Assembly (NCBI GenBank): GCA_031425655.1
Contig: JANPJS010000109.1
Location: 1 to 21,573, forward strand
DNA: 21,573 nucleotides
Direction of reading: 5' to 3'
From: Abditibacteriaceae bacterium
GTDB lineage: Bacteria > Armatimonadota > Abditibacteriia > Abditibacteriales > Abditibacteriaceae
A program made the position numbers and the translations under genes. Within the stretch, counting starts at the first letter, position 1, and each line of letters opens with the position of its first letter. Under the pieces are notes generated by a model, which was not told the DNA's origin, searched no databases, and was given only the letters and a program-made list of their open reading frames with translations. Below, one piece after another: positions 1 to 21,573 of this stretch.

Positions 1-68
1 AGATCACGATGATCACAAAGGGCAAAGTTAGCAAACGTTCTTCGTGGTCTTGGTGGCCTTTGTGTTTA
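1..68. repeat. Truncated palindromic element with arms built from ~9-bp units (CACAAAG family)
   Basis: Left units gatcacgat/gatcacaaa; right units ttcgtggtc/ttggtggcc/tttgtgttt. 49..68 matches 8867..8886 at 18/20 nt. Confidence 0.65.
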
Positions 69-78
69 ACAAATCTTC

Positions 79-1080
79 TCAAGCTACCGGCAAAATGGAG
101 TGCGCCTCGAAACCCAGCATGGCCGTTGAATAGGTTTTGTCTTCGCGCATTCGCCAGCGATAATAGCCGGCAGCGGCGATCATCGCGGCGTTGTCGGTGC
201 ATAAAACGTGAGGCGGCACCACGAAATCCACGCCCGCGCCCTGCGCTGCTTCTTGCATCGCGCCGCGCAACACGCCGTTGGCCGCTACGCCGCCGCATAA
301 TCCGAGCGTTGCCGGGCGAAACTCGCGGAGCGCGCGTTCGACGTTGCGGCGCAATTGCGTAATCGCCGCGCGCTGAAAGCTCGCCGCGATGTCTGGCACG
401 CGATTCGGAATCTTTTGCGCCATCTGCGAGGCGGCGGTTTTAAGGCCCGAATACGACACGTCGAACGACGGCTCCAAATTGCTCGCGGTGAAATCGAAAG
501 CCCGCGCATCGCCACTTCGTGCGATTTTTTCCAGATTCGGGCCGCCCGGCAGCGGCAAGGCCAGCGCCCGCGCCACTTTATCGAAGCTTTCGCCAACCGC
601 GTCGTCGCGCGTTCGGCCTAATCGCTCATAAAGGCCGAAATCGCGCATCAAGATCAAATCGGAGTGCCCGCCGCTGACGACTAAGCACAGCATCGGAAAT
701 TTCAAATCGGGCTGCGCCAAAAAGTTGGAAACGATGTGCCCTTCGATGTGATTGACCGGCTGACAGGGAATGCCATGCGCGAAGCTGAGCGCCTTCGCCG
801 CCGCCACGCCGACGAGCAGCGCGCCCGCCAATCCCGGCCCGTGCGTGACGCTGATTAAATCCAAATCGCGCCAACCGATTCCGGCTTCGCGCAATGCGGC
901 GCCCAGCAGAGGATTGAGCAATTCAAGATGCTTGCGCGAGGCGATTTCCGGCACCACGCCGCCAAAAAGCTGATGCGCGTCAATCTGCGAGGCGATGAGG
1001 TTGACCACAATTTCCGCGCGGTCGCGCAAAATCGCCACGCTGGTTTCGTCGCAGGATGTTTCGATGCCAAGAGTTATCAT
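79..1080 (-). CDS. tsaD: tRNA N6-adenosine threonylcarbamoyltransferase TsaD
   Basis: LGIETSCDET start, GGVVPEIASRKH, GPGL, HIEGH metal motif, LVVSGGHS, DDAVGESFDK, SYSGLKT, CTDNAAMIA; lies in a tsaE/tsaB operon. Confidence 0.97.
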   Translation of the reverse strand: MITLGIETSCDETSVAILRDRAEIVVNLIASQIDAHQLFGGVVPEIASRKHLELLNPLLGAALREAGIGWRDLDLISVTHGPGLAGALLVGVAAAKALSFAHGIPCQPVNHIEGHIVSNFLAQPDLKFPMLCLVVSGGHSDLILMRDFGLYERLGRTRDDAVGESFDKVARALALPLPGGPNLEKIARSGDARAFDFTASNLEPSFDVSYSGLKTAASQMAQKIPNRVPDIAASFQRAAITQLRRNVERALREFRPATLGLCGGVAANGVLRGAMQEAAQGAGVDFVVPPHVLCTDNAAMIAAAGYYRWRMREDKTYSTAMLGFEAHSILPVA

Positions 1081-1595
1081 TTGGGTGCTGGGGGTTGGGT
1101 TTTAGGTGCTGGATTTCGCGGCGCAAATAGCGGTTTCCACCAGCCGGACGGATTTTGCTGCGGATAAAACCATTCCACTTTATATTTTTTTCGTGTAAAT
1201 ACGCCGCAGACAGGCACGTTTTTCCAAAGCGACGCTAATTCGGAATAATTTTCCTTCGTTAACGGTGCGTAGCTTCGCGCTCGTTGATATTTGGCAAAGT
1301 CAAATCCATCTTGGTCTTGAGAAAACATAAATATCTGCACAGAAACAATCTTTTTCTCGCGCGCAATTCTGTGGCTTGTATACGCAAACACAGTTAATCC
1401 CTTGCTTTGTGCTACTGTTAGGTTTGGCTCAACAGCACTAATTCCCATCGTTGCGTTTGGGAGTTTCAGTGCCTCCGTCGCATCAACAAGATTTTTGTAA
1501 GCCGCTCGGCTCAGGGCGTAAGAGTTAAACGCTGTTCCGCACAATAAGCCAAGCATCATCACACTCAAGATTCCAAAGTAACGTGATAGTCTCAT
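1077..1595 (-). CDS. AT-rich hypothetical protein with N-terminal signal/TM segment
   Basis: Start placed at ATG 1595, which overlaps the rimI TGA (ATGA); its TGA overlaps the tsaD ATG. Hydrophobic N-terminus FGILSVMMLGLLCG; visibly lower GC than neighbours. Confidence 0.75.
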   Translation of the reverse strand: MRLSRYFGILSVMMLGLLCGTAFNSYALSRAAYKNLVDATEALKLPNATMGISAVEPNLTVAQSKGLTVFAYTSHRIAREKKIVSVQIFMFSQDQDGFDFAKYQRARSYAPLTKENYSELASLWKNVPVCGVFTRKKYKVEWFYPQQNPSGWWKPLFAPRNPAPKTQPPAPK

Positions 1596-2047
1596 TTCGT
1601 TGTCTCCCATTTCATAATCACTGCATCGTCGCCATCGGGATAGTATTTCGGGCGCGTGCCGACGACGCGAAAACCGCTCGATTCGTAAAGCCGACGCGCG
1701 GCGGCGTTGCCGGGGCGCACTTCAAGAAAAATCTGAGTCGCGCCGCGTCGTTGGCAGGCAGCAAGCGCGGCTTCGAGCAAACGGCGCGCGATGCCCTGCC
1801 CGCGCGCCGATTCGTCCACGGCAAGCGTGCCGATTTCGCCTTCGTCGAAAATCGTCCACGCAATTACGAAAGCGCATAACACGCCGTCTTTTTCCGTAGC
1901 GAGCGCGATATATTCGCCCTGCGCAGCTTTTTCCAACGCGCTTTGCATCGTGGCCGGCGACCACGGCTGCGAAAACGAGGCTTGATCTATCGCGATAATT
2001 TGCTCGGCGTCTTCGGGGCACGCGGCGCGAATGCAAAGCTCGTTCAT
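1592..2047 (-). CDS. rimI: RimI-type ribosomal-protein-alanine N-acetyltransferase (GNAT)
   Basis: SFSQPWS, LAVDESARGQGIA (acetyl-CoA motif), LEVRPGNAAARRLY, RPKYY..DAVIM; usual position after tsaB. Confidence 0.9.
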   Translation of the reverse strand: MNELCIRAACPEDAEQIIAIDQASFSQPWSPATMQSALEKAAQGEYIALATEKDGVLCAFVIAWTIFDEGEIGTLAVDESARGQGIARRLLEAALAACQRRGATQIFLEVRPGNAAARRLYESSGFRVVGTRPKYYPDGDDAVIMKWETTK

Positions 2048-2796
2048 TGCGGCGCTTCGCGCGCCAGTTTTTCGGCTAAAACGCGCTCGGCGTTGCTCGG
2101 CGCCAAATACAGAGGCGACAGCGATAATGGGTCGTCGCGCTGGCCGTTTTGCAAGCGTTTGGCGGCCAAACGCGCCACGTTTTGCACGGCATTTTGCGGC
2201 GCCACTTCCAGCGTTTCCATGCCGATGCCGCGTAGCAATTCCGTCACTTCAGCGACGGCGCGCATTCCGGCTCCCGGCGTAGAAATCAGGGCTAACCACG
2301 GCGGCGGTTCGCGCAGAATTGCGTCGGCGATTTGCTGCGGCGTAACGATGCGTTCTTCATCGCGCGAAGCGAGTTCGAGGTCGCGTGTCAGCCACGATTT
2401 AACGTAGATTTCTCCAGCGCGGCACGGCGCGAAGGCAAAATACCAGCAATAATCGCAGATGCGAATGCTGCGCGCTTCAAGGGCTAAAGCATCTAACGAC
2501 GGCACGCCGACGAGGGGCAAATCGCGCGCTTGGGCCAGAGTTTTCGCGGTCGTGAGGCCGATGCGCAGGCCTGTCCACGAGCCGGGGCCAATGCTGACGG
2601 CGATGGCATCGAGATCGTCTAACGTCCAATCGCTTTCATTCAACACGGCGGCGATGGAAAGCATGACTTCGCTTGAAAGCCGGCGAGGTTGGTCTAAAAC
2701 GCGCGTGGCAACGTGCAGAATTTCGTGATTTTCGTCCAATTCCACGGCGGCGAACGCGGGCGCGGCAGTGCTGGTTTCCAGAGCCAGAATCTTCAT
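2044..2796 (-). CDS. tsaB: tRNA threonylcarbamoyladenosine biosynthesis protein TsaB
   Basis: MKILALETST, AVSIGPGSWTGLRIG, GVPSLDALA, C-terminal PLYL. Confidence 0.95.
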   Translation of the reverse strand: MKILALETSTAAPAFAAVELDENHEILHVATRVLDQPRRLSSEVMLSIAAVLNESDWTLDDLDAIAVSIGPGSWTGLRIGLTTAKTLAQARDLPLVGVPSLDALALEARSIRICDYCWYFAFAPCRAGEIYVKSWLTRDLELASRDEERIVTPQQIADAILREPPPWLALISTPGAGMRAVAEVTELLRGIGMETLEVAPQNAVQNVARLAAKRLQNGQRDDPLSLSPLYLAPSNAERVLAEKLAREAPQ

Positions 2797-3224
2797 CGGG
2801 ATTCAATTTCAATCGTGCGCGCATCGCCGTCGCCGGGCGCAAAGGTGACGCGAAAACGCGGCGCGGGCAGAAAATCGGCGATGCGTTCGGGCCATTCGAT
2901 GACCGTCACGGCATCATCGCGCTCGACGGCGTCCAGCACGCCGGCATCGCGGATGGCGTCGTAACACAGATTTTCCAAACGATAAGCGTCAATATGCACT
3001 AAAGGCAGGCGGCCTTCGTGTTCGACCATCAGCACGAAAGTCGGCGAAGTGACGGCGGTTTCGCAGCCCAGACCGCGCGCCAAACCTTGCACGAAAGTCG
3101 TTTTTCCGGCGCCAAGCGGGCCGCTGAGCGTGATTAAATCGCCCGCTTGCAGCGTGGCGCCGAGTTCTTCGCCCACGCGGCGCGTGCTTTGGGCATCCGC
3201 AGTCTCAAAACGTCGCACATTCAT
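2793..3224 (-). CDS. tsaE: tRNA threonylcarbamoyladenosine biosynthesis ATPase TsaE
   Basis: GPLGAGKT Walker A, VTSPTF, HIDAYRL, IEWPE. Confidence 0.96.
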   Translation of the reverse strand: MNVRRFETADAQSTRRVGEELGATLQAGDLITLSGPLGAGKTTFVQGLARGLGCETAVTSPTFVLMVEHEGRLPLVHIDAYRLENLCYDAIRDAGVLDAVERDDAVTVIEWPERIADFLPAPRFRVTFAPGDGDARTIEIESR

Positions 3225-3289
3225 AAGCGCAAATTCAGTTCAAATCGTGGCATACAAAAGGCACTAAGGCGCTTGATTCGCGCCGGGCG

Positions 3290-3318
3290 TTGACACCCGG
3301 CGCTGTGCGACTTATAAT
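3290..3318 (+). promoter_or_regulatory. Perfect-consensus sigma70 promoter
   Basis: TTGACA (3290-3295), 17 bp, TATAAT (3313-3318), upstream of the gene at 3423. Confidence 0.85.
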
Positions 3319-3422
3319 GGCGGTCAAGTTGTGCCCCGCCGCAAATTCGTCGCAAAGCTGTTTTGCCGTTGCCTTTATCGCGTAATTTTTTCAGACTCAG
3401 TAGAACCCACCGGAGGACTCAG

Positions 3423-3962
3423 ATGATTCGCAAACATTCGTCACTCGTCGCACTCGCCCCGCTCGCCGGCGCTCTGGCAACTTTGCCCTTTTTGGCGGCC
3501 CCGGCTTTGGCCCAGAACACTGCGCCCGCCGCGCCTACGACCAGTGTAGCCGCCGGCCCACCCGCCGTCATTGCCGAGCCGTCGCCGTCCGCCAACATGG
3601 CATATCAGGCGATGCGCGGCATCGTCGTTTCGCGTCCGGGCGCTAATGCGGCTCGGCTTTCGCTGGGATCGCGCAACACGCTGCGCGTCGGCGCTCGCAT
3701 CGAATATCTGCACAACGGTCTGCAAATCGCCACGGGCCGCGTCAATTCGCTGAACTTTGCCGACGCCGTGGCCACAATTGAACCCGAAATCGCCGATCAC
3801 TACATCGGCATCAACACCGACATCCGCGTGCTGGAAAATCCGGCTTACAATCTCGGCCCGACTCAGGAAGAAATTGACGACAAAGAATGGCGCCGCTTCG
3901 AGCGCGATTTCGTCCTCAGCGCCGCCATCGCCACCGGCATTTATTACGCCTTCATTCGATAA
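3423..3962 (+). CDS. Secreted hypothetical protein (signal peptide, Pro/Ala linker, small beta domain, hydrophobic C-terminus)
   Basis: SD GGAGG at 3412-3416 before ATG 3423; signal peptide ending ALA|Q; followed by a terminator. Confidence 0.85.
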   Translation: MIRKHSSLVALAPLAGALATLPFLAAPALAQNTAPAAPTTSVAAGPPAVIAEPSPSANMAYQAMRGIVVSRPGANAARLSLGSRNTLRVGARIEYLHNGLQIATGRVNSLNFADAVATIEPEIADHYIGINTDIRVLENPAYNLGPTQEEIDDKEWRRFERDFVLSAAIATGIYYAFIR

Positions 3963-3976
3963 AGCCGCTTTCACGC

Positions 3977-4012
3977 AAAAAGGCCGGAAACCATTTGGTT
4001 TCCGGCCTTTTT
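3977..4012. terminator. Bidirectional rho-independent terminator
   Basis: AAAAAGGCCGGAAACCA-tt-TGGTTTCCGGCCTTTTT between convergent genes. Confidence 0.9.
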
Positions 4013-4020
4013 CGGCCCAA

Positions 4021-4815
4021 TTACAACGATTCCTTGACCGAATTGCGCCCGATAATCGGATGCTGTTCCAATTCGACGACGGCGCCGTTAATCAGCGCCG
4101 CGTCGTCGCACAAAAACATCCATGCGAAGTGCGCGACTTCTTCGGGTTTGAGCAGGCGCCCGCCCGCGACAAGGCTGCGCGGCACGATGTCTGGCCAGTT
4201 TTCGGGCAGGCCGTCTTTGATTTTGGCCTTGTATTCGTTGGGCGTCAGCACCCAGCCGGGATTGATTTGATTGACGCGAATACCTTCCTGCGCCAGCGCG
4301 TCGGCTAAATTGCGCGTTAAGGTCATCAGCGCGCCTTTGGAAACCGAATACGCGAAAAGGTTCGCCTCGCCACAATACGCGTTAACTGAGCCGATATTCA
4401 GCACGCGCCCGCCGCCCACGCGCTGAAAGTGCGGTCGCGCGGCCTGAATCAGCAGAAACGGCGCACGCGCGTTGATGCTCATCACGCGGTCGAAAAGCGC
4501 GGCATCGGTCGTTTCCACATTCGAGCGCACCACGAAAGCGGCGTTGTTGACCAAAATATCGAGCCGCTGCCACTGCGCGCCGGCTTTTTCGACCAATTGC
4601 GCGCATTCTTCGGCATTTTCAAGCTGCGCCGCGATGAAAATCGCCTGCGCGCCTGACGCCAGCAATTCGCGCACGATGGCTTCGCCGGCTTCGCGCTCGT
4701 GATTTTGGCCATGCAAAACCACCGACGCGCCTTCTTTTGCCAACCGCCGCGCGATGGCTTCGCCGATGCCGGTCGCCGAGCCGGTAACCAGCGCGACTTT
4801 ATTTTCGATTTTCAT
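4021..4815 (-). CDS. SDR family NAD(P)-dependent oxidoreductase
   Basis: TGSATGIG Rossmann motif, NNAA, NIGS, catalytic YSVSK, IRVNQINPG. Confidence 0.95.
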   Translation of the reverse strand: MKIENKVALVTGSATGIGEAIARRLAKEGASVVLHGQNHEREAGEAIVRELLASGAQAIFIAAQLENAEECAQLVEKAGAQWQRLDILVNNAAFVVRSNVETTDAALFDRVMSINARAPFLLIQAARPHFQRVGGGRVLNIGSVNAYCGEANLFAYSVSKGALMTLTRNLADALAQEGIRVNQINPGWVLTPNEYKAKIKDGLPENWPDIVPRSLVAGGRLLKPEEVAHFAWMFLCDDAALINGAVVELEQHPIIGRNSVKESL

Positions 4816-4826
4816 AAATACCCTTT

Positions 4827-4953
4827 AGCCGTGACTTTTCAATAAACCACGGATGGACACGGATCAACACGGATTTTCACGGCTCGATTTAAAAATCCGT
4901 GTAAATCCGTGGCCGTTTCCGTGAAATCCGTGTTCCATTGAAAAGTCACGGCT
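4827..4953. repeat. Palindromic element, CACGGAT 10-bp-unit family, copy 1
   Basis: 17-bp perfect outer IR agccgtgacttttcaat/attgaaaagtcacggct; left arm has CACGGA(T) units at 10-bp spacing, right arm has (A)TCCGTG units. Confidence 0.9.
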
Positions 4954-5986
4954 TCAAAACAGCTTTCACGAGTTCGCCGTTGTGCATCGCTTCAAAGCAT
5001 TCGTGCCAATCTTCGAGCGGCGCCACGCGATTGAGAATCAAATCGAGATTCAATTGGCCGCTGCTGAGCATGGCGATGACTTTTTCCCAAATCGGCCAGT
5101 TGTGCGAAAACGAGCCTTGCAGCGTTGCGGCTTTTTGCACCAGCGGGTCAAGCGAAAAGCCCAGCGGCTGCGGCCCCCAGCCGACTTTGGTGATGTGTCC
5201 GCCGGGCCGCACCATTTGCATCGCGGTTTGCAGCGCGGCGCTGACTCCGGCGGCGTCAATCACTACATCGAAGCCATAGCCGTCGCCGATTGCGGTCACC
5301 GATTGCGCGGCTTCCTCTGTCGTAAAAGTGTGTGTCGCGCCGAGTTTTCGCGCGATGTCGAGCCGCGCTTTGTCGGCGCTGGTGCCGATAACTACAAGCG
5401 GCTGCGCGCCGGAAAGCTGCGCCATCGTCACGCAAAGCAGGCCAATCGGCCCCGGCCCGATGACGGCCACGCTATCGCCGGGCCGGATGCGCGAATGCAC
5501 GCAAACCGCGTTATAGGCCACGCAGCACGGCTCCGTCAGCGCGGCTTTTTCAAAAGCCAAATTATCCGGCAAATGATGTAAACAACGCTCCGGCACGCGC
5601 ACGAAGCGCGTCATGGCGCCGTCCACGCCGTAGCCGAAACCAAGCCGGTTCGGGTCGAGATTATACAGTCCGGCGCGCGTAAACGGCGAATTGGCATCAA
5701 TAACCGCCGCCGTTTCCGAAACCACGCGGTCGCCTTCGCTAAAGCCGCGCACGCTGCGCCCGATTTGCGCGATTTCGCCGGAAAATTCGTGGCCGAAAAT
5801 CACCGGATAATTGACTTTCCAACTGTTTTTCCCAAGCCATTGATGCAAATCGCTGCCGCAAACCCCGACGGCGCGCACCGCGAGCAAAACTTCGTCGTCG
5901 CCAATCGTCGGAATCGGCACTTCGCGCAGTTCCGCCGCGCCCGATTGAGGGCCATAATTCACGACGCCGGGCATGGTTTCAGCCAT
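4946..5986 (-). CDS. Zinc-binding (MDR) alcohol/polyol dehydrogenase
   Basis: GVCGSDLH, GHEFSG, TEPCCV, GPGPIG; start set at ATG 5986 with SD GAAGGAG upstream. Confidence 0.93.
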   Translation of the reverse strand: MAETMPGVVNYGPQSGAAELREVPIPTIGDDEVLLAVRAVGVCGSDLHQWLGKNSWKVNYPVIFGHEFSGEIAQIGRSVRGFSEGDRVVSETAAVIDANSPFTRAGLYNLDPNRLGFGYGVDGAMTRFVRVPERCLHHLPDNLAFEKAALTEPCCVAYNAVCVHSRIRPGDSVAVIGPGPIGLLCVTMAQLSGAQPLVVIGTSADKARLDIARKLGATHTFTTEEAAQSVTAIGDGYGFDVVIDAAGVSAALQTAMQMVRPGGHITKVGWGPQPLGFSLDPLVQKAATLQGSFSHNWPIWEKVIAMLSSGQLNLDLILNRVAPLEDWHECFEAMHNGELVKAVLKP

Positions 5987-6006
5987 CAAATTTCTCCTTC
6001 GCTTGC

Positions 6007-6094
6007 TTTCAATAAACCACGGATTAACACGGATTTTCACGGCCTGATTTAAAATCCGTGTTAATCCGTGTCCATCCGTGGTTTATTGAAAAGT
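6007..6094. repeat. Palindromic element, CACGGAT 10-bp-unit family, copy 2
   Basis: 18-bp perfect IR tttcaataaaccacggat (6007-6024)/atccgtggtttattgaaa (6074-6091); same units and core as copy 1. Confidence 0.9.
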
Positions 6095-6110
6095 TTGGTT
6101 TTCATAATCA

Positions 6111-6812
6111 TCACTGCGGGCCGACATTGCCGTAAGCGTGAACGCGCTCGCAGATCAGGCGCAGTTTGCTTTCCAAGTCGCCACCGGCGGTTTTGAAAGC
6201 GTCGGCGTCAATGGCCAGAGGTGCGCCCAAAACCACGAGCGGCGCGCCGTATTGAGGAGTCGAAATCGCCTCTTCGATAGTCAAACCGCCAACCGCCTGC
6301 ACCGGCACGCGCACTGATTCAACAACTTCGCGCAACTGGTCGAGCGGCGTGGCGCAATATTCGCCGCGCGCCCGAATTCCGCGCCTTTCGTCGAAGCCGA
6401 TGTGATGAATCACGAAGTCGCAGCCCAAATCTTCGAGGCGCCGCGCGGCGGCAATCATATCGGGCGCGGCTAAGTTATCGCCCATGACTTGCACGCCGAA
6501 ATCGCGTCCGGCTTTGACAACTTCGCGGATAGTTTCCTCGTGGGCGCGCTCCATGACCACGACGTGCGTGGCGCCGGCTTTAGCCATTAGTTCAGCTTCG
6601 AGCCAGCCGCCGTCCATCGTTTTCAAATCGGCGACAATCGGCACCTTCGGAAACTCGCGGCGCAGGGCGCGCACGCCGTTCATGCCTTCGGCGATAATCA
6701 GCGGCGTGCCGGCTTCGAGCCAATCCACGCCCGCGCGAAGTGCCATGCGCGCCGTGTCGAGCGCCTCGGCGATTTCCGTCACGTCCAACGAAATTTGCAC
6801 GATAGTTTTCAT
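6111..6812 (-). CDS. 3-hexulose-6-phosphate synthase / KGPDC family protein (OMP decarboxylase suprafamily)
   Basis: QISLD, LEAGTPLI, ADLKTMDGG (DxKxxD), AVGGL. Confidence 0.88.
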   Translation of the reverse strand: MKTIVQISLDVTEIAEALDTARMALRAGVDWLEAGTPLIIAEGMNGVRALRREFPKVPIVADLKTMDGGWLEAELMAKAGATHVVVMERAHEETIREVVKAGRDFGVQVMGDNLAAPDMIAAARRLEDLGCDFVIHHIGFDERRGIRARGEYCATPLDQLREVVESVRVPVQAVGGLTIEEAISTPQYGAPLVVLGAPLAIDADAFKTAGGDLESKLRLICERVHAYGNVGPQ

Positions 6813-7712: not shown

Positions 7713-7742
7713 AGAAAAGGCTTTTTGCGATAGATTTTCGAC

Positions 7743-8786
7743 TCAAAAGTGCGTAAAAGCGGCGGGAAGCGTTTGGCGCACGCCGTTTTTCAGCAAAATG
7801 ACCGGCGCATCTTCTTCGCGCACGATGCAGCGCCCGACGCGCGTAACCGGCGTGCCGGTCGCGTTTTGCACGGCTGCGATAACTTCGGCGGCTTTGTTCG
7901 GCGCGATGCAAAGCAGTAACTCATAATCTTCACCGCCGGTCAGCGCAAAACTCAGCGCGTCACGATTTGCTGCTTCCGCAAACGCGCGACACGCTTGGGA
8001 AATCGGTAGTCGCTCGGTTTCGATTTCCAACGTAACATCCGATTGCCGCGCGATATGCGCCGCGTCACCGGCCAAGCCATCGGATAAATCGAGCGCGGCG
8101 CGAACGGCATTTTCGACTTTCAAGGCCGCCTGCATTTCGCGCAAGCGCGGCGTCGGAGTACGATGGCGCGACAGTAGAAAATCACGGTTGGAACGGCGAC
8201 CCCTCCTGCCCAAAGGGCGCCCGCCCTTAGCAAGGGGGCTTGGGGGTCGCAGTTCGAGTTCCGAGTTGAGCAGAATTTGTAGTCCGGCGGCAGAATCGCC
8301 CAATGTGCCGGTGACCAAAAGCACATCGCCGGGCGCGGCGCCCGAACGCAAAACCGGGCGGGGCGCGTTGCCGATGAGCGTCACGCTCAACATCAACGCG
8401 GGCGATTTCACGGTGTCGCCGCCCGCGATGGTGAGATTGAATTCTCCGGCGGCTTCCTCCATGCCTGCATAAAGTTCTTCGATGAATTCAACATCGAGAT
8501 TTGGCGGCAGAGCCAGCGAAATAAACGCCGCAACCGGCAAGCCGCCCATCGCCGCGATGTCGGACACGTTGACGGCAATCGCTTTCCAGCCGAGGGCGCG
8601 TGCCGTCGTCCAATCGAGGCGAAAATGCACGCCTTCGACCAGCGCATCGCAAGTGACAATGGGCGAATTGAGCGATTTAAGCAGCGCCGCATCGTCGCCG
8701 ATGCCGACGCGCACGCCGTCGCGCTGCGTTAGTTTTTCGTGCAAGCGCGCGATGAGGCCGAATTCGCCGAGAGAAGAGAGGTTCAT
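7743..8786 (-). CDS. thiL: Thiamine-monophosphate kinase with an in-frame ~22-aa palindromic insertion
   Basis: GEFGLI, GIGDDAA, DALVEGVHF, NVSDIAAMGG, GGDT, DLSDGL, GGEDYELL, FTHF end; start set at ATG 8786. Confidence 0.95.
   Translation of the reverse strand: MNLSSLGEFGLIARLHEKLTQRDGVRVGIGDDAALLKSLNSPIVTCDALVEGVHFRLDWTTARALGWKAIAVNVSDIAAMGGLPVAAFISLALPPNLDVEFIEELYAGMEEAAGEFNLTIAGGDTVKSPALMLSVTLIGNAPRPVLRSGAAPGDVLLVTGTLGDSAAGLQILLNSELELRPPSPLAKGGRPLGRRGRRSNRDFLLSRHRTPTPRLREMQAALKVENAVRAALDLSDGLAGDAAHIARQSDVTLEIETERLPISQACRAFAEAANRDALSFALTGGEDYELLLCIAPNKAAEVIAAVQNATGTPVTRVGRCIVREEDAPVILLKNGVRQTLPAAFTHF
8190..8255. repeat. Intragenic palindromic element (CCCCCTT-AAGGGGG family) in frame within thiL
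   Basis: 13-bp outer IR with 1 mismatch plus inner hairpins; minus strand acccccaagcccccttgctaaggg closely matches intergenic 21472ff acccccaacccccttggtaaggg. Confidence 0.8.
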
Positions 8787-8792
8787 ATTTTC

Positions 8793-8884
8793 AACACAAA
8801 GGACACCAAGAATTTCACAAAGAAACACAAAGTATTTGAATGATTTTTGTGTTTCTTTGTGAAATCCTTAGTGTCCTTTGTGTT
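8793..8884. repeat. Palindromic element, CACAAAG family, between thiE and thiL
   Basis: 39-bp IR with 2 mismatches (8793-8831 / 8846-8884), 14-nt loop; arms built from CACAAAG-type units. Confidence 0.9.
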
Positions 8885-8897
8885 TATACATCTGTGT

Positions 8898-9563
8898 TTA
8901 CAAATCGAATTTCGCTACCAAATCGCGCGCGGCTTGCTCCATCGCGGCTTCGTTTCCGGCATTTGTGACAGCGGAAATTACGCAGGCCATCGCAGCGCCG
9001 GCTTCGCGCGTGGCGGCGATATTTTCGAGCGATACACCGCCGATGGCCGCGACGGGCAGCGGCGTGGCTTGAACAATGGCGCGCAGCGTTTCGAGGCCGA
9101 TGGCGCTGCCGGCATCGAGCTTGGTTTGCGTGCCAAAAATCGCGCCCGCGCCGATATAATCGGCTCCGGCACGCCATGCGACGACGGCTTCTGCGGGCGA
9201 ATTACACGAAGCGCCGATCATTTTATGCGGGCCTAAAATATGCCGCGCAAGGGCGACGGGCAAATCGTCGGGGCCGAGATGCACGCCGTCGGCGCCGACG
9301 GCTAAAGCGAGATCGGCGCGGTCGTTCATCATAAAAAGCGCGTTCGCGGCGCGTGTCAGGCGGCGAATTTCGCGGGCAATCGGCAAAAGCTGCGAAAGCG
9401 GCGTGCTTTTATCGCGCAGTTGAATGATGCGGGCGCCGCCCTTTAGTGCGGCTCGCGCGATGGCGAGATGTCCGCCACCAAGCGCGGCGTCGGTGATAAC
9501 ATACAATCCGCGCAAACGTGCGCGCGGCAAGAATTCTGGTAAAGCGGAAACTGCCTGCTTCAT
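8898..9563 (-). CDS. thiE: Thiamine-phosphate synthase
   Basis: LYVITD, IQLRDK, MNDRADLA, GVHLGPDD, GADYIG, TQTK, VAAIGG, VISAV; start set at ATG 9563. Confidence 0.95.
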   Translation of the reverse strand: MKQAVSALPEFLPRARLRGLYVITDAALGGGHLAIARAALKGGARIIQLRDKSTPLSQLLPIAREIRRLTRAANALFMMNDRADLALAVGADGVHLGPDDLPVALARHILGPHKMIGASCNSPAEAVVAWRAGADYIGAGAIFGTQTKLDAGSAIGLETLRAIVQATPLPVAAIGGVSLENIAATREAGAAMACVISAVTNAGNEAAMEQAARDLVAKFDL

Positions 9564-10892: not shown

Positions 10893-11087
10893 TTGTAGGG
10901 ACATTCAGTTCTATCTTGGCGGAGCCTGCCCCCCGATTAAAATCGGGGTCTACCGCTACAAAGCCGACCTTCGTCGGCTGAACCAAACAAGCGGGGAGAG
11001 TCCGCGAAGGCGGACTTCGTAACCATAGACCCCGATTTTAATCGGGGCCGTATCGCTGCACAAGAACTGAATGTCCCTGCCCTACAA
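10893..11087. mobile_element. Nested REP/REPIN- or MITE-like non-autonomous element
   Basis: 16-bp perfect outer IR (10897-10912/11063-11078) inside ttgtagg..cctacaa; 22-bp perfect inner IR of GTAG-type REPs (10931-10952/11026-11047); two further internal hairpins. Confidence 0.8.
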
Positions 11088-15532: not shown

Positions 15533-15574
15533 TCCCGATAGGCGAACCGGCGCAGCCGCCGGAAGGAGAAACCT

Positions 15575-16639
15575 ATGAATCGCAATAACATGGCATTAAT
15601 CGGGGTAGTCGCCTTCCTCGTGATCGGACTGGGGCTGACGGCGCTCCTGCTGATGAACCGAGGCGGCGCCCCCGTTCCCGGTCAAGAGGTCGTCGCGCCG
15701 CCGCCGCGCAAAGTCTGGGTCGCCCGGCAGGACATTTTGCCGCGCACGGTCATCAAATCGGCCATGCTGATGGAAGACACGGCCACCTCGGCCACGGCGG
15801 GCGCCATTTCCGACCCGAATCAGGTGCTGGGCAAAATGGCCAGCGCCACGATTTACAAAGGCCAGGCCGTCACCTCCGCGATGACGACCGAGCCGCTGCG
15901 CCGCGTCGTGCCGGCCAACATTTCCATTCCCACTGAAGATTTACGCGCCGTCGCGGTGTGGGTTGACCCGCTGCAAACCGCCGCCGGATTGGTGGACAAG
16001 GGAGACCGCGTGGATGTTATCGTGGCGCACAAATTGAAAATCAAAGGCGCTGGCGGACAGGACGGCGAAATCGTGGCGGGCCGCACCATCGCGCAGGACT
16101 TGGAAGTATTGGCCGTAGATCGTTCCCTCGCTGCCGGAGCGGCGCCAACTCCGGCGCCTAACGCCGCTCCGGGCGCCGCGCCGCCCCCCCCGCCACCGGC
16201 GCCGCCAAACCAGCCGGGGCAGAAAACTTTCACTCGCGTGGTCTTAGCCGCACCGCCCGAAATCGCCGAGCGATTGGTTGCCGGAAACCTGTCCGGCGAA
16301 TTGCACCTCACCATCCGCGATCCGCGCGTCCGTGACAACTCTCTGATTGCCGAAGTCCGCGAATATCCGGTTCAAAGTGCCGATCCGTTGGCCCAGAAAG
16401 TCCGCGAAGCCAGCGTGCAGGACGCCATCGAAGCACGCCGTCAGCGCCGCCAGCTTGCGTTTTCTCTGGAAACACAAGAAAGGACGACGCGACTGGCTGA
16501 TCGCCTAAAGCCGCGGATTAAAATGCCGGATTTCGGCACTCCGATGCGGCCCGAAGTGCTTCCAACACCGATGCCGGAAGTTCACGAAATCACCGTTGTG
16601 CGCGGCACGGAAAAAACTCGCGTCGTCGTTCCACGCTAA
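15575..16639 (+). CDS. cpaB: Flp pilus assembly protein CpaB/RcpC
   Basis: SD AAGGAG; N-terminal TM; SAF domain (VWVARQDI); RAVAV..AGLVDKGDRVDVIV; LEVLAVD; LHLTIR. Confidence 0.9.
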   Translation: MNRNNMALIGVVAFLVIGLGLTALLLMNRGGAPVPGQEVVAPPPRKVWVARQDILPRTVIKSAMLMEDTATSATAGAISDPNQVLGKMASATIYKGQAVTSAMTTEPLRRVVPANISIPTEDLRAVAVWVDPLQTAAGLVDKGDRVDVIVAHKLKIKGAGGQDGEIVAGRTIAQDLEVLAVDRSLAAGAAPTPAPNAAPGAAPPPPPPAPPNQPGQKTFTRVVLAAPPEIAERLVAGNLSGELHLTIRDPRVRDNSLIAEVREYPVQSADPLAQKVREASVQDAIEARRQRRQLAFSLETQERTTRLADRLKPRIKMPDFGTPMRPEVLPTPMPEVHEITVVRGTEKTRVVVPR

Positions 16640-16654
16640 CGTAAAACGACTGGC

Positions 16655-16698
16655 AAAATCAAAAGGCGAAGCTCAATTGAGCTTCGCCTTTTGATTTT
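16655..16698. terminator. 44-bp perfect palindrome, probable terminator of cpaB, heptamer-repeat-like
   Basis: aaaatcaaaaggcgaagctcaa|ttgagcttcgccttttgatttt, no spacer, T-rich tail. Confidence 0.75.
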
Positions 16699-16741
16699 CG
16701 CTTTTCGCGGGCCGTTTCCAAACCTGCGATAATGAATTCTC

Positions 16742-18385
16742 GTGACTTCTCGACAGGATTCGACACCTCAACCTCACAAACGCTCGCTTTCCAACCCTTT
16801 GAAGGCCGCCGCGCTGCTTTCGGCGCTATATTTTCTTTCCAAACTGACCGGGCTTTTTCAGCAGCAGGTTTTATTAGGCGCGCTCAAACCTTACGCCACC
16901 GACGCTTACAACGCGGCTTTAACGCTCCCGGATGTCGTGAATTACGCCATCGCCGGCGGCGCGCTTTCCAGCACTTTTATTCCGATCTTCACCGAGCTAC
17001 GCGAACGCGGACGCGAAAAAGAAGCGTGGGAATTCTTCTCGGCGCTGGCCACGCTGATGACCATCGTTACGACCACGCTCGTCGTCATTTGCATAATTTT
17101 CGCGGAGCCTTTGACGCGGCTTTTCACGCCCGGATTGGATGGAATTACACAAGACGCGCGCACTTTCCCTCTCGCCGTGCGCATGACGCAAATTATTTTG
17201 CCGGCGCAAGTTTGCTTTTATCTGGGCGGATTGCTGGTCGGTGTGCTGAACGCGCAAAAGCGTTTCGGCGCCACAGGATTTACCGGCGCGGTTTACAACG
17301 TCGTAGCGATTATCGTCGCCGTTGTTCTCTGGAGCCTCACCGGGCTGGAAATAGCCTTCGCGGTGGGGCTGCTCGTCGGCGCTTTGGTCGGCAATTTTTT
17401 GCTGCCGCTGAAAGCCTCGCTGTCTGGCCCAAGCGAGCTGCGTTTGCGCTTTCGCCCTAATTTTCACTGGCGCCATCCGCTGATTAAGCAATTCTTCGTG
17501 ACCGCGCTGCCGATTATGGTGGGCGTGTCGTTTCCCGTCGTGGATCAAATCGTGGTCAGGGCTTTTGCCTCGTATTTGCCGACGGGCGCCATGACGCATC
17601 TTTCGGCGGGCAATCGTTTGATGCTCGTGGCACTCAGCGTTTTGGCGCAAGCGGCCAGCGTGGCGGCGTTTCCCTTTTTGGCCTCGAACAGCGCCGCGCG
17701 CGACTGGCAGAAACTCGCCGATTTTCTACGCGTCGGCCTGCGCCGCTTGATGTTCATTACGCTGCCGATTTCGACATTAATGATTCTGACGGCACGCCCG
17801 ACTGTAAATATTTTGTTCGGACACGGCGCGTTTAACACGCCCGAAGCGATTAACAGCACCAGTCTGGCGTATGCGCTTTACACGCTCGGACTTTTCGCAT
17901 GGGCCGGGCAGCAACTTGTAGCACGCGGCTTTTGGGCGCTCAAAGACACGCGCACACCGACCATTATTGGTAGCGTTATCACGGTTTTCTTCGTGTTTTT
18001 CGCGTGGCTGTGCGTGCGTTCGAGTGCGCCGGTGCCCGCTTTGGCTTTAGCCACCAGCATCGGCGCCTGCGTGCATTTCGCGGCCATGACTTTAGCCTTG
18101 AAAAGAAAACTGGCCGGCGCGCCTTACGAAGTCGAACTTGGCGCGCACCGCATCGCCGGAACGCTGCTGCGCACTTTTGCCGCTTGCCTGGTGATGGCCG
18201 TTGCGGGCATATTTGTCGCCGTTTTGCTGAGTTTCACGCCGCTGTATGGCAAAATCGGCGACTTAGTGCGCGCTCTTCTCATCACAGCCGCCGCGCTGCC
18301 CGCTTTTGCCCTCGCCTCGCACCGCTTCGATATTCCCGAATGGAAATGGCTGTGGAACCGCGTTGCGCGCAGAATTAAGAAGTGA
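16742..18385 (+). CDS. murJ: Lipid II flippase MurJ (MviN)
   Basis: DAYNAALTLPD, GGALSSTFIPIF, LNAQKRF, NRLML, RGFWALKDTRTP, LALATSIG; many TM segments. GTG start uncertain. Confidence 0.92.
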   Translation: MTSRQDSTPQPHKRSLSNPLKAAALLSALYFLSKLTGLFQQQVLLGALKPYATDAYNAALTLPDVVNYAIAGGALSSTFIPIFTELRERGREKEAWEFFSALATLMTIVTTTLVVICIIFAEPLTRLFTPGLDGITQDARTFPLAVRMTQIILPAQVCFYLGGLLVGVLNAQKRFGATGFTGAVYNVVAIIVAVVLWSLTGLEIAFAVGLLVGALVGNFLLPLKASLSGPSELRLRFRPNFHWRHPLIKQFFVTALPIMVGVSFPVVDQIVVRAFASYLPTGAMTHLSAGNRLMLVALSVLAQAASVAAFPFLASNSAARDWQKLADFLRVGLRRLMFITLPISTLMILTARPTVNILFGHGAFNTPEAINSTSLAYALYTLGLFAWAGQQLVARGFWALKDTRTPTIIGSVITVFFVFFAWLCVRSSAPVPALALATSIGACVHFAAMTLALKRKLAGAPYEVELGAHRIAGTLLRTFAACLVMAVAGIFVAVLLSFTPLYGKIGDLVRALLITAAALPAFALASHRFDIPEWKWLWNRVARRIKK

Positions 18386-18469
18386 GAATGAAGAATGTAG
18401 AAAAGGGTGGCTCTAATTCTTCATTCTTCATTCTTCATTCTTCATTCTTCATTCTCCATTCTCACTTCT
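18371..18469. repeat. Inverted heptamer tandem-repeat element (AGAATGA / ATTCTTC)
   Basis: Five perfect ATTCTTC copies at 18416-18450 plus variants; complementary AGAATNN units from 18371; 13-bp perfect IR 18378-18390/18457-18469. Confidence 0.9.
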
Positions 18470-18520
18470 ACCCGGCACGCGCTTTGCTTTTTCCAACTGA
18501 GCCAACAAGGAGGCAAAATC

Positions 18521-18739
18521 ATGGGACAAGCAGAAGACAAAGCACGAGGCGCCGGCAACGAAGTTGTGGGCAAAGTCAAGCAGGCCGCAGGCGCTCTGAC
18601 CGGTGACAACAGTCTGAAAGCCGAAGGCGAAGCACAGGAACTCAAAGGCGAAGGCCAGACCGCACTGGGCAAAGCCAAAGACGCGGTCGGAGACGCGCTC
18701 GACGCCGCCGGAAAAGCCGTAAAACGGGCCGGCAGCTAA
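18521..18739 (+). CDS. csbD: CsbD family general stress protein
   Basis: SD AAGGAGG at 18507-18513; DKARGAGNEVVGKVKQAAGALTGDNSLKAEG...GKAKDAV. Confidence 0.9.
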   Translation: MGQAEDKARGAGNEVVGKVKQAAGALTGDNSLKAEGEAQELKGEGQTALGKAKDAVGDALDAAGKAVKRAGS

Positions 18740-18764
18740 ACACTGCACGTCAGAGACGTTAACC

Positions 18765-18795
18765 AAAGCGCCACCGAAATTCGGTGGCGCTTTTT
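18765..18795 (+). terminator. Rho-independent terminator after csbD
   Basis: AAAGCGCCACCGA-aat-TCGGTGGCGCTTTTT. Confidence 0.9.
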
Positions 18796-18803
18796 CGTTT
18801 TAA

Positions 18804-19015
18804 CTCACCTTACGCACCGGCCTGTATCCACCGTTTTAAACGGTAAGACGGAAAGAACGGGAAGACGGGAAGAGATTTGAGGGCTTGTCTAGCGTGAGCT
18901 GTGCGCTCTCAGGACAGTGTTCAGACCGTTTTTTCGCGTTGCCAACCCAAAAGGTTTCCCGTCTTCCCGTTCTTTCCGTCTTACCGTTTAAAACGACGGC
19001 ACCGCGTAAGGTGAG
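18804..19015. mobile_element. Nested MITE-like palindromic element
   Basis: 12-bp perfect outer IR ctcaccttacgc/gcgtaaggtgag; 40-bp perfect inner IR (18832-18871/18956-18995) built from ACGGNAAG units. Confidence 0.8.
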
Positions 19016-19047
19016 AGCTAAGCTGTCTCCGCGTTTTTTGTGTCACC

Positions 19048-21240
19048 TTACGCTGCTATCGTCGGCGCGTTGGCGCGGTCGCGGAAACGATGCTGCGCGA
19101 GTCCGTTCACCAAATCGCCGGCTACGCTCAACGCATTGCCGTCTTGGGCCAGAAAAACGCCGGCGGGCGCGTTGCCGTCCATTTGCTTGCCGAACTCAGT
19201 GGCCGAGACCAAATCCACGCCTTCGCCCGACGCGGCGATAGGTTTTTGATGCTTGTAAGCTTCGTCCAAGAACTTGCGCGCATCGCCCATTTTGACCAGC
19301 AGCGCCGCGCTGGCGCCGCCCGGAACGTAAACGCCGTCGAACAAAACCGAACTGCAATTGGCGTAGGTTTTCTTGGCTTCAACGGGGCCGCCATCGCCTT
19401 CGATAGCGCCAATGTGCGGGCCGACGACTTCGCCCAGCGCGCCCTGCGCCGCTAATTTGGCCTGCATCGTCTGGACGCACGCGGCAGCTACACCTTTGGC
19501 AACTAAAATCGCCACTTTGCGGCCTTTGGGCGAAAGAGGCTGGCCGATTTCGATGCTCAGACCGCTGGTTTTTTGCAAACCGCCTGACGCCGTCGTTGGC
19601 GATTCAGCTTCGGCTAAGGCTTTCATTTCGTCGGCGGAATCGGCTGTGCCGCCCGGTTTGGCTTTGGCGCCGGGCAATTCTTCGCCAATCGCCAGACCGA
19701 CTTGCGTGGCCATGACTTCGTTAATCTGTGCCAGATTATTCAGCATTCGCACGCGCACTTCGCGCGTTTCGACTTTGCTCAGCTCGAATTGCAGCGCCTT
19801 GACGATATGCTCTTTTTCAATCGGCGTCATGCTGTTCCAGAACAAGCGCGCCTGCCCGTAATGGTCGCCGAAACTTTCGCTGCGCACTCGCACTTTTGGC
19901 CCCGAAACCTGTTCTTCGTAGCTGACGAAACCGCCTTGTGGCGTGGCTTCTTCAGGCGAATGACCATCGAGCGAGGCCGGCGCATACGACACGCGACCTT
20001 TGTTGATGGTGTGACGCATTTGCGCGTCGCGCTGATTGTTGGAAAACGGGCAAACCGGACGGTTGATCGGCAGTTCGTGAAAATTCGGGCTGCCCAAACG
20101 CGACAATTGCGTGTCGAGATAGGAAAAATTGCGGCCTTGCAGCAGAGGATCGTTGCTGAAATCAATGCCGGGCACGATGTTGGTGGTCATAAACGCCACT
20201 TGCTCGGTTTCGGCAAAGAAGTTGTCCGGGTTGCGATTGAGCGTCATTTTGCCGATGCGCCGCACGGGAACCAGGTCTTCGGGCCAGATTTTGGTGGCGT
20301 CCAGCACGTCGAAATCGAATTTGGCTTCGTCGCCTTCGGCCACCAACTGCACGCCCAATTCCCATTGCGGGAAGTTGCCCATTTCGATGGCTTCCCACAA
20401 ATCGCGGCGATGAAAATCGGCGTCCTGCCCCATAATTTTCACGGCTTCGTCCCACACCAGCGAGTGCGCGCCCAAAACCGGCTTCCAGTGAAACTTGTCG
20501 AACGTGGATTTGCCCTCGGCGTTGATGAGCCGGAAAGTATGCACGCCGAAGCCTTCCATCATGGCATAGCTGCGCGGAATGGCGCGGTCGCTCATCACCC
20601 ACATAATCATGTGGGTGGATTCGGGCGTAAGCGAAATAAAATCCCAAAACGTATCGTGCGCCGACGACGCTTGGGGAATTTCGTTATTTGGCTCCGGCTT
20701 GACGGCGTGAACCAAATCGGGAAATTTAATCGCGTCCTGAATGAAGAAAACCGGAATGTTGTTGCCGACCAAATCCCAGTTGCCTTCCTGCGTATACATT
20801 TTCACGGCGAATCCGCGCACGTCGCGCGCGGTGTCCGCCGAGCCGCGCGAACCGGCGACGGTCGAAAAGCGCAAAAACAGCGGCGTTTGGCGCGAAGTGT
20901 CGGTGAGAACGCCCGCCGTGGTGTATTCTTCCAGCGATTCGGTCAGCTCGAAGACGCCGTGCGCCGCGGCGCCGCGCGCGTGAACCACGCGTTCGGGAAT
21001 GCGCTCATGATCGAAGTGCTGAATCTTTTCGCGCAGAATGAAATCTTCGAGCAGCGTCGGGCCGCGCGAACCGGCGCGCAGCGAGTTCTGGTCGGTGCTG
21101 ACAGGCTGGCCTTGATTGGTCGTCAGAGGCGTGCGGTCTTCGGTCGTGACTTTGGCTAAATCAAGGTCTTTCGTGGTCGGTGCGGCGGGCGAGGTGCCCT
21201 TTTCAGGGCTGTTCGGCGAAGTTTTTTTCGGTTCGTTCAT
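19048..21240 (-). CDS. katE: Large-subunit monofunctional heme catalase (HPII type, C-terminal flavodoxin-like/DJ-1 domain)
   Basis: FDHERIPERVVHARG active site, RFSTVAG, DLVGNN, RNFSYLDTQL heme ligand, C-terminal FDGVYVPGG..AYKHQKPI; start set at ATG 21240. Confidence 0.97.
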   Translation of the reverse strand: MNEPKKTSPNSPEKGTSPAAPTTKDLDLAKVTTEDRTPLTTNQGQPVSTDQNSLRAGSRGPTLLEDFILREKIQHFDHERIPERVVHARGAAAHGVFELTESLEEYTTAGVLTDTSRQTPLFLRFSTVAGSRGSADTARDVRGFAVKMYTQEGNWDLVGNNIPVFFIQDAIKFPDLVHAVKPEPNNEIPQASSAHDTFWDFISLTPESTHMIMWVMSDRAIPRSYAMMEGFGVHTFRLINAEGKSTFDKFHWKPVLGAHSLVWDEAVKIMGQDADFHRRDLWEAIEMGNFPQWELGVQLVAEGDEAKFDFDVLDATKIWPEDLVPVRRIGKMTLNRNPDNFFAETEQVAFMTTNIVPGIDFSNDPLLQGRNFSYLDTQLSRLGSPNFHELPINRPVCPFSNNQRDAQMRHTINKGRVSYAPASLDGHSPEEATPQGGFVSYEEQVSGPKVRVRSESFGDHYGQARLFWNSMTPIEKEHIVKALQFELSKVETREVRVRMLNNLAQINEVMATQVGLAIGEELPGAKAKPGGTADSADEMKALAEAESPTTASGGLQKTSGLSIEIGQPLSPKGRKVAILVAKGVAAACVQTMQAKLAAQGALGEVVGPHIGAIEGDGGPVEAKKTYANCSSVLFDGVYVPGGASAALLVKMGDARKFLDEAYKHQKPIAASGEGVDLVSATEFGKQMDGNAPAGVFLAQDGNALSVAGDLVNGLAQHRFRDRANAPTIAA

Positions 21241-21471
21241 TGGGAAAAATCTCTCCATTCGTGAGAAGGTCAGCGCCAAATTAGCACAAACTATGCCTCA
21301 CACAGTAAATAAAGCACAAATCCCACAATTTGAGCGCAAGAAACGGAAAGACCGGCGCGTTTGCACCCTTTATCCTTAAAGCGTCTAAAGAAATAAACCA
21401 CTGATGAACCCGCCCAGAGGGCAATGGCATTAAGTTAAGGAAGCTAAAGAGCGGCTTTGCCGCTCCTGAAA

Positions 21472-21573
21472 ACCCCCAACCCCCTTGGTAAGGGGGCTAA
21501 ATTTATTACGCTGTTGCACAAAGCCGAGTTTGAGTAGTGCCATAGCGTTTGAATTTAGCCCCCTTACCAAGGG
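21472..21573. repeat. Palindromic element, CCCCCTT-AAGGGGG family, truncated by window end
   Basis: 22-bp perfect IR cccttggtaagggggctaaatt (21482-21503)/aatttagcccccttaccaaggg (21552-21573); each arm is itself a hairpin. Confidence 0.85.

Follow-up and report, generated by a model that had tools for sequence, protein, structure and literature searches.

Hairpin elements in the window

The window, i.e. the whole stretch of DNA analysed, comprises 21,573 nt of contig JANPJS010000109.1 from the Abditibacteriaceae bacterium assembly GCA_031425655.1 (327 contigs). Its hairpins are real, yet they constitute a mixture of several classes (Table 1). Realignment of the arm pairs confirmed the coordinates and inverted arms of the preliminary description. 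Folding covered eight of the ten elements (the two above 150 nt were left out) and yielded z-scores against dinucleotide shuffles of -3.5 (1-68), -12.3, -9.8, -8.8, -5.8, -8.0, -2.4 (8185-8260) and -9.2. The window was said to encode no mobilising enzyme, and Pfam indeed detected none among the 19 ORFs scanned, two of which had no assigned family.

Table 1. Hairpin elements and related features of the window
Positions	Strand	Assignment	Arms or remarks
1..68	.	Degenerate CACAAAG-unit member (GxxExxY class)	Cut by contig start
1083..1113	-	Lone heptamer 3' arm, missed earlier	Read from sequence
4827..4953	.	Empty GxxExxY-class hairpin, adh-sdr junction	4827-4854/4926-4953, 28 nt, 89%
6007..6094	.	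Empty GxxExxY-class hairpin, hps-adh junction	6007-6042/6056-6091, 36 nt, 89%
8190..8255	-	66-nt in-frame insertion in thiL	DUF559-type hairpin
8793..8884	.	Empty GxxExxY-class hairpin, thiE-thiL junction	8793-8831/8846-8884, 39 nt, 95%
10893..11087	.	REP-like hairpin cluster, 81-copy family	Within 10931-11047
16655..16698	.	Single-copy perfect hairpin after cpaB, terminator-like	20-bp stem, 4-nt loop
18371..18469	.	Empty heptamer-class (four-helix-bundle class) hairpin, family 18	Arms confirmed
18832..18995	.	Empty GxxExxY-class hairpin	18832-18871/18956-18995, 40 nt, 100%
21472..21573	.	REP-like hairpin, 36-copy family, cut by contig end	21482-21573

Five elements were assigned to the GxxExxY class. 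The one at the contig start lies 11 nt beyond the tsaD stop, is single by blastn and weakly resembles (score 16) family 2, a 60-copy family with CACAAAG units that includes the thiE-thiL hairpin and has a filled copy in congener G002 (L140). The thiE-thiL junction is a 5-nt gap in G003 and carries other hairpin types in G001 and G014. The adh-sdr element overlaps the adh stop and is a chimera of one family 3 and one family 14 arm; its GxxExxY-filled relatives, identified by arm match, reside in the same genome (C215 and C126), and six relatives displayed a different hairpin or none at this junction. The hps-adh element belongs to family 14 (CACGGAT units) and its arms match the C126 GxxExxY locus; the junction lacked this hairpin in four out of four relatives. 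The last element, located between the convergent csbD and catalase genes, belongs to family 9 (ACGGNAAG units, 37 copies, filled copy at C260), in which spacers were common to different loci in 27 of 36 cases.

The heptamer element 18371-18469 has 7-bp units like those around PF05635 genes. Its first arm provides the last codons and stop of murJ, which ends earlier than in G001 and G003, where remnants of another heptamer are retained. A filled copy with its unit was found neither among the seven PF05635 genes of this genome nor, by eye, among 27 of the relatives' 102 loci. The lone arm ends 2 nt ahead of the tsaD start.

The REP-like family of 10893-11087 flanks a Y1/HUH (RAYT-like) gene at C12 and that of 21472-21573 a DUF559 gene at C244. 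Element 8190-8255, previously listed with the REP-type families, is a DUF559-type hairpin and lies in frame inside thiL; it bears a nested 18-nt mini-palindrome and is missing from the seven relative ThiL sequences compared. The supposed tandem-unit element 16655-16707 proved to be a perfect single-copy hairpin. Intrinsic termination, rejected for the class in view of long loops and a co-oriented bias, is plausible only here, although the terminator scanner did not list it.

Repeat families and their cargo genes

Genome-wide, 1652 inverted pairs reached a score of at least 18; 60 contigs contained 280 pairs, against one after block shuffling of the same contigs. The two tandem classes comprised 412 and 255 elements, and hairpin elements occupied at least 71,684 bp. 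Arm motifs were multicopy, in families of 18-81 copies, and densities differed between congeners (e.g. 17.9 vs 5.0 and 0.5 vs 7.5 per Mb). Stems measured ~30 bp and arms consisted of four to five units in 172 and 156 of 214 cases, with expanded arrays of up to 28 units. Families were nested inside one another, and a GIY-YIG-type family (52 copies) was also present. The A-rich arm comes first in the window, as described, yet elsewhere the order can be reversed: a T-rich first arm was displayed by the largest heptamer family (95 copies) and by three smaller families.

The type of repeat unit went with the type of cargo, and each GxxExxY gene of this genome had its own repeat family. Filled forms of families with 8-13-bp units enclose a GxxExxY (TIGR04256) gene, a predicted PD-(D/E)XK nuclease, while the 7-bp class encloses four-helix-bundle (23S-IVS, PF05635) genes and REP-type hairpins accompany RAYT and DUF559 genes. 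Since arms enclosed GxxExxY, four-helix-bundle and DUF559 genes in this genome and its relatives, the cargo named in the preliminary description was correct; the families with 8-13-bp units, presented there as unrelated, have one class and cargo in common. Flanking inverted arms (score of at least 13) were found at 72 of 78 GxxExxY loci (3.7% of mismatched pairs) and 27 of 34 four-helix loci (1.8%). Among loci with a period, this was 7 bp at 27 of the 30 four-helix loci but at none of the 71 GxxExxY loci, class labels having been given by eye ahead of the period and family-assignment tests. The nine GxxExxY genes of this genome fell into nine different families out of 12 (P = 0.005 size-weighted, 0.015 unweighted). 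Three of 12 GxxExxY-class and seven of 12 heptamer families had no filled copy in the 327-contig assembly, among them those of 8793-8884 and 18371-18469.

Arms were still recognisable around proteins 59-74% identical to the query in many phyla and one archaeon, with a high cross-pair control (35%) because arms were shared. In a quick tree, units tracked GxxExxY clades only as linkage predicts. Viral carriers amounted to two loci, from one pattern, both with arms by eye. Residues E34, D69, E79-x-K81 and Q93-xxx-Y97 were conserved in 28 GxxExxY proteins; the nearest folds of the model (pLDDT 96) were Cas4, lambda exonuclease and Hjc, all matches lying above E = 0.001. The four-helix protein (PF05635/TIGR02436) matched 2GSC and displayed no catalytic motif among those checked.

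Copying and junction occupancy

Whole elements of several families were copied in either orientation. Spacers at separate loci were related in 173 of 310 and 39 of 79 elements and never in shuffles, figures inflated because some spacers include inner arm units; in the family of 8793-8884 only 4 of 34 were related, and in that of 6007-6094 only 4 of 24, most spacers there being specific to their locus. Orientation relative to transcription displayed no bias (27:21 and 8:8). The 4-8-nt direct repeats of 388 and 251 elements did not fall outside the range given by within-family shuffles. The elements resemble MITEs (ERIC, RUP, NEMIS) in being short, non-coding and bounded by terminal inverted repeats, but differ from them in the absence of a target duplication, for which a MITE identity was rejected, and in arms that make up most of the element.

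Elements abut stop codons at tight operon junctions, where families turn over while occupancy persists. Absent, empty and filled states were all found at orthologous loci, and junction states varied between relatives. Junction C193:13443 is an overlapping stop-start here and holds a filled cassette in G001-G003; the filled C54 of this genome corresponds to an empty hairpin of the same family in G003; and one junction carries cassettes of different GxxExxY clades in G007 and G001. Junctions occupied here were also occupied in a congener in 26 of 50 cases, vs 7 of 73 (p = 2.6e-7), or 26 of 40 vs 5 of 34 when both gaps were at least 40 nt, mostly by a hairpin of another family. Mapping of four read runs for strain-level empty sites revealed no close strain. 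With codon bias as expression proxy, only the lowest fifth was depleted (29 vs 72-85 elements per fifth).

Origin and spread of the hairpins

The arm motifs were neither single-copy nor fixed across relatives nor without a linked gene, which supports the reading of most tandem elements as empty, non-autonomous cassettes, 16655-16707 excepted. Two classes of one-gene cassettes (arm, gene, inverted arm) are present, GxxExxY with 8-13-bp units and four-helix-bundle with 7-bp units, of which the tandem-armed hairpins would be gene-less members, arisen by loss of the gene between the arms. We give about an even chance to the proposal that these gene-less copies spread at the DNA level by means of the cognate cassette protein, like Ssn-NTS or RAYT-REP. 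Each protein would recognise its own arms when single-stranded or extruded as a hairpin, and the GxxExxY protein would cut there; host recombination or repair might then copy an empty or filled hairpin to another junction, or over a resident one, leaving no target duplication. Insertions at gene ends may survive because the first arm has built-in stop codons whereas the second has none. The four-helix half of this model is the weaker one: a protein devoid of the catalytic motifs tested would serve as specificity factor for another enzyme. The idea that a pentamer matches five units is not discriminating, because all classes have ~30-bp arms. G-N-A triloop mini-hairpins, which have a DNA-specific stability, were enriched (57% and 51% vs 12-17%), a mere hint as the enrichment stems from three families.

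The persistence of a hairpin at one junction would be equally expected if the host selected a stem there. The hairpins would then be signals in polycistronic mRNA, either for RNase III or for stability/decoupling, much as rRNA intervening sequences are. Slippage, ectopic conversion and the exchange of alleles with relatives would renew the units, and the genes would be passengers or RNA-binding regulators. The occupancy shared with the congener, usually with another unit, agrees with this, as do the 7-bp arrays of the ribosomal-protein cluster (present in 17 of its 25 wide gaps), the stem length and the presence of rnc, encoding RNase III; the heptamers of the Coxiella IVS, according to PMC4990558, lie in a 28-bp stem cut by RNase III. 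RNA stems nonetheless appear unlikely: sense-strand G-U vs A-C mismatches (97 vs 143 in heptamers, 164 vs 127 in the GxxExxY class, copies not being independent) displayed no consistent G-U excess and thus a mixed RNA-level pairing signal, RNA tetraloops were not enriched, and asymmetric copies lie in either orientation. Neither one gene per family nor arm conservation across phyla is predicted.

Y1/HUH (RAYT, IS200) transposases could move all hairpins in trans, with GxxExxY and four-helix genes as captured cargo. HUH insertion is not known to leave a target duplication, none was detected here, families are nested and the genome has six Y1_Tnp genes. The Y1 genes, however, match non-tandem families of their own and no tandem family, and Y1-type hairpins shun tight junctions (5% of 97, vs 60% of 224 and 30% of 367); together with the strict period-to-cargo rule, this makes such mobilisation improbable. 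We likewise consider it improbable that the empties are immobile remnants of filled cassettes which recombined horizontally, in a homing-like manner anchored on conserved gene ends. The filled-to-empty pair, the clade difference between G007 and G001, the locus-specific spacers of some families and the higher occupancy of conserved syntenic junctions (40 of 123, vs 471 elements per 3067 co-oriented junctions overall) are in line with such remnants; relatedness of spacers and outer flanks between unrelated loci, in both orientations, is not, and several hundred independent gene losses ending at near-identical size would be required.

A wholly non-mobile origin, as neutral slippage microsatellites or intrinsic terminators, is barely credible and largely refuted by the flanking-arm, period and family-cargo results: some arrays are expanded and 16655-16698 and 18765-18793 are terminator-like, but arms at co-oriented junctions were paired in orientation 195 times vs once, multicopy families are tied to cargo genes, and short-loop singleton hairpins, unlike heptamer elements (17 of 229), lie preferentially in convergent gaps (50 of 98). 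Template switching (locus-by-locus arm mirroring), first suggested by terminal positions, was not supported: under pairing-independent detection, none of seven motif sets had arms that were closer to their partner in the element than to the nearest arm of another element. Reverse transcriptase had no match in the 97%-complete genome.

Comparison with known systems

A published precedent is provided by the Ssn GIY-YIG nucleases, which cleave ssDNA at the hairpins that flank them (PMC11893778). As in Ssn-NTS/SRM, a small nuclease gene is flanked by its own hairpin repeat, with many gene-less copies and homologue-specific variants (PMC11893778). The cassettes differ in their cargo (TIGR04256, of predicted PD-(D/E)XK fold, or the non-enzyme PF05635, instead of GIY-YIG), for which Ssn-NTS identity was rejected, in long tandem-array arms pairing across the gene and in strong stop-start targeting. 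One gene per family, empty doublets, a hairpin-gene-hairpin arrangement and occasional in-frame insertion are shared with REP/REPIN-RAYT and TIRtrons (PMC3733652). The tandem-armed families, however, occupy different sites and have no cognate HUH Y1 gene, so that this identity was retained only for 10893-11087.

ORF-bearing 23S rRNA IVS (S23p) share the PF05635/TIGR02436 family, a ~30-bp terminal stem and heptamers (PMC4990558), whereas the window elements and the seven PF05635 genes of this genome lie between protein genes and not in an rRNA helix, for which IVS identity was rejected; the elements here, in protein-coding operons, are mostly gene-less and number in the hundreds. The intergenic heptamers of Beggiatoaceae, Xanthomonas and Nostoc likewise consist of about four 7-bp units near stops and starts of co-oriented genes, are rare in divergent gaps and provide three-frame stops in one orientation (PMC4679880, PMC4692102). 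Those articles, as far as available, regard them as direct repeats or as quadruplexes and give neither a cargo gene nor a mechanism of mobility, and "four helix" and "helix bundle" are absent from the available text of PMC4679880. Outside subscription journals and supplements, no literature was found that connects dispersed repeat arms with GxxExxY or PF05635 genes.

Implications

Elements and cassettes together point to a form of selfish DNA that is widespread but hardly described, and they link a class of bacterial repeats still without explanation to two large protein families whose function is unknown. A further-reaching reading, less likely than not, concerns both families. In it, the GxxExxY proteins of many phyla would make up one large family of nucleases, each enzyme being specific for the arms of a single repeat family in hairpin or ssDNA form; with no transposase involved, they would drive a "cut and overwrite" cycle that copies hairpins to operon junctions, where these displace rival hairpins. 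Pentameric four-helix proteins would provide the second specificity system, which would be non-catalytic and read four to five heptamers. If true, this would explain why an excess of intergenic heptamers has long been noted in bacteria. Nine matched putative enzyme-substrate pairs in one genome are open to direct assay, as with Ssn nucleases; were cleavage arm-specific, single-strand nucleases with sequence specificity could be drawn from this new source, and repeats would have a mode of spread that needs no transposase. Since the elements rewrite protein C-termini and fill most wide gaps of the ribosomal-protein cluster, they matter for annotation and operon evolution.

Hairpin families of the window and genome

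Inverted arms, as reported at several positions by the preliminary description, were found there and folded far better than shuffled sequences. Its claim that no mobilising enzyme is encoded agreed with a scan of 19 ORFs of the window (contig C109), none of which was a recombinase; gene content comprised housekeeping, sugar-metabolism, thiamine, Flp-pilus, murJ, csbD and catalase genes. The complete assembly (G000; 5.98 Mb, 327 contigs, 97 % complete) contained 1652 inverted pairs, and a control on 60 contigs yielded 280 real pairs vs one after shuffling. The 1137 non-overlapping hairpin elements formed 33 families of at least five members, with 195 elements remaining in smaller groups. By eye, 12 families (412 elements) were labelled as a class with 8-13-bp units and 12 (255 elements) as a heptamer class, the remaining ones being non-tandem and REP-like. 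Membership of window elements in repeat families, also proposed earlier, held for families of 18-81 copies, with one element (16655-16707) matching no family. An 18-nt mini-palindrome, which lies within hairpins from many unrelated families, often in their loops, looks like a repeat parasitic on other repeats.

Coordinates of individual features (window, contig C109; other C numbers, contigs of G000; L055, locus of congener G002)
Location	Strand	Feature
Window 1077-1610	-	177-aa low-GC ORF between rimI and tsaD, without Pfam match; stop overlaps tsaD start
Window 1083-1113		Lone heptamer arm traversed by the 177-aa ORF
Window 3290-3318	+	Perfect sigma-70 consensus (12/12) upstream of an ORF of 180 aa that has no Pfam match
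Window 4827-4953		Chimeric element
Window 6007-6094; 8793-8884		Elements whose family spacers do not show whole-element copying
Window 8205-8222; ~21409-21424		18-nt mini-palindrome; 299 genomic matches with one mismatch allowed
C207:8415; C226:5704; C285:1186		Clear chimeras
C207:1210-20933		Ribosomal-protein cluster (genes identified by N-termini) with unusually wide gaps; 7-bp arrays of several families in 17 of 25
C70:13107-13740		Small toxin-antitoxin-like gene pair (from translation) where two relatives carry GxxExxY cassettes
C106:16655-17627		Divergent, longer (~260 aa) GxxExxY-like protein; own 10-bp repeat family, 19 copies
C144:550		Second DUF559 gene, hairpin family of 18 copies; DUF559 thus shares the gene-plus-hairpin layout
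C256:25891		Ssn-like GIY-YIG gene, hairpin family of 52 copies
L055:2163-2571		thiE-thiL gap; degenerate direct repeats over ~400 nt, with no relation to the hairpins

Filled cassettes and their proteins

G000 displayed nine GxxExxY, seven four-helix-bundle, three DUF559, six Y1_Tnp and four GIY-YIG matches, with arms beginning at the upstream stop and finishing just ahead of the next start. Together with 69 of 86 matches from 40 relatives (fragments and weak matches excluded), GxxExxY genes were flanked by inverted arms at 72 of 78 loci vs 3.7 % of mismatched pairs. Four-helix genes, seven from G000 and 27 of 102 matches in relatives, were so flanked at 27 of 34 loci vs 1.8 %. Where a period was detectable, it was seven in 27 out of 30 four-helix loci and in none of 71 GxxExxY loci. 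The nine GxxExxY genes of G000 matched nine different repeat families (P = 0.005, weighted by family size); five of the seven four-helix genes matched a heptamer family of at least five elements, and seven of the 12 heptamer families had no matching gene in the assembly.

The best 80 of 601 GxxExxY matches in GTDB genomes spanned Proteobacteria, Acidobacteria, Planctomycetes, Chloroflexi, Bacteroidetes, one cyanobacterium and one archaeon. Arms were found at 60 of their 78 scorable loci, and 35 % of mismatched pairs scored too because the arms are so alike. Since these non-coding arms are kept with the gene across phyla, we argue that they are probably required in cis. The GxxExxY protein retains PD-(D/E)XK residues, and its confident structure model weakly suggested Cas4, lambda exonuclease and Hjc as nearest folds; PF13366 is catalogued with multiple transfers and an unknown function (PMC3424549). 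The four-helix protein matched structure 2GSC, described as a homopentamer (PMC4990558).

Placement at operon junctions

According to our own gene caller, 203 of 229 heptamer elements and 268 of 369 elements with 8-13-bp units lay between co-oriented genes, at medians of 1 and 8 nt from the upstream stop, respectively. Tight co-oriented gaps (<30 nt once the element was removed) represented 60 % of 224 heptamer-occupied and 30 % of 367 8-13-bp-class junctions; the same category accounted for 1.4 % of element-free intergenic DNA, and for 5 %, 3 % and 0 % with RAYT-, DUF559- and GIY-type hairpins. Arm order was constant (195 vs 1). This placement is partly due to survival, because 127 of 255 heptamer elements had stop codons in every one of the three frames of their first arm (second arm, three) and a hairpin arm provides the C-terminus of murJ. 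Eighteen elements, 14 of them heptameric, lay well within called ORFs (C39, C47, C114, C164, C289, C318 and others); these are possible in-frame insertions, as in thiL.

Comparison with relatives

At junctions of the window, the gap was short in relatives, or the same place was taken by a hairpin from another family. Among 123 junctions syntenic with congener G003 (1.6 of its 5.3 Mb compared), those occupied in G000 tended to be occupied in G003 too (26/50 vs 7/73, p = 2.6e-7; detector false rate 1/597), also after tight junctions were dropped. Class was mostly retained among the 26 shared junctions (17 heptamer-heptamer, five long-long, four mixed); alignment scores reached at least 20 in only seven pairs. 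Stacked families were rare, 19 of 383 junctions being flagged, of which about half were labelling artefacts.

Both flanks were adjacent in G000 for 21 of 69 relatives' cassettes, and in the relatives' DNA compared for four of 15 G000 cassettes. The empty and filled orthologous sites sought by the preliminary description were indeed encountered: a filled cassette on C54 corresponded in G003 to an empty hairpin from its own family, and a stop-start overlap in G000 to a filled cassette in relatives G001-G003. At a single junction, the GxxExxY cassettes of two relatives belonged to separate clades.

Copying and proposed mechanism

Spacers related across unrelated loci, in both orientations, show that whole elements were copied in several families. 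Multicopy families, spacers shared between loci and family densities specific to lineages speak against the hairpins of G000 having arisen purely locally. No target duplication was found at the elements and no reverse transcriptase in G000. Copying at the DNA level by the cognate cassette protein, to which we give an even chance, is proposed by analogy with Ssn nucleases, which cleave single-stranded DNA at hairpins flanking their own gene (PMC11893778), and with RAYT-REP systems (PMC3733652). The protein would recognise its own arms, cutting would follow there and a repair step would complete copying. The main rival, RNA stems kept by host selection while their units turn over, fits the persistence of hairpins at junctions and the presence of RNase III; it does not fit the missing wobble bias, the free element orientation and the single gene per repeat family, and appears less likely. 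Cognate-protein copying and stem selection can occur side by side.

Relation to known systems

Arrays of heptamers close to stop and start codons have been published, without cargo or mechanism in the available portions (PMC4679880, PMC4692102), and the Coxiella IVS is a single filled heptamer cassette located in rRNA (PMC4990558). In openly accessible main texts, no link between GxxExxY genes and repeats was found; the domain was named once, beside a reverse transcriptase (PMC8934634). Tandem-armed cassettes would operate like Ssn-NTS or a REPtron, yet are members of neither. What is new from G000 is the one-to-one map of genes to repeat families, the three allelic states (filled, empty and absent) and the contrast with RAYT-type hairpins.
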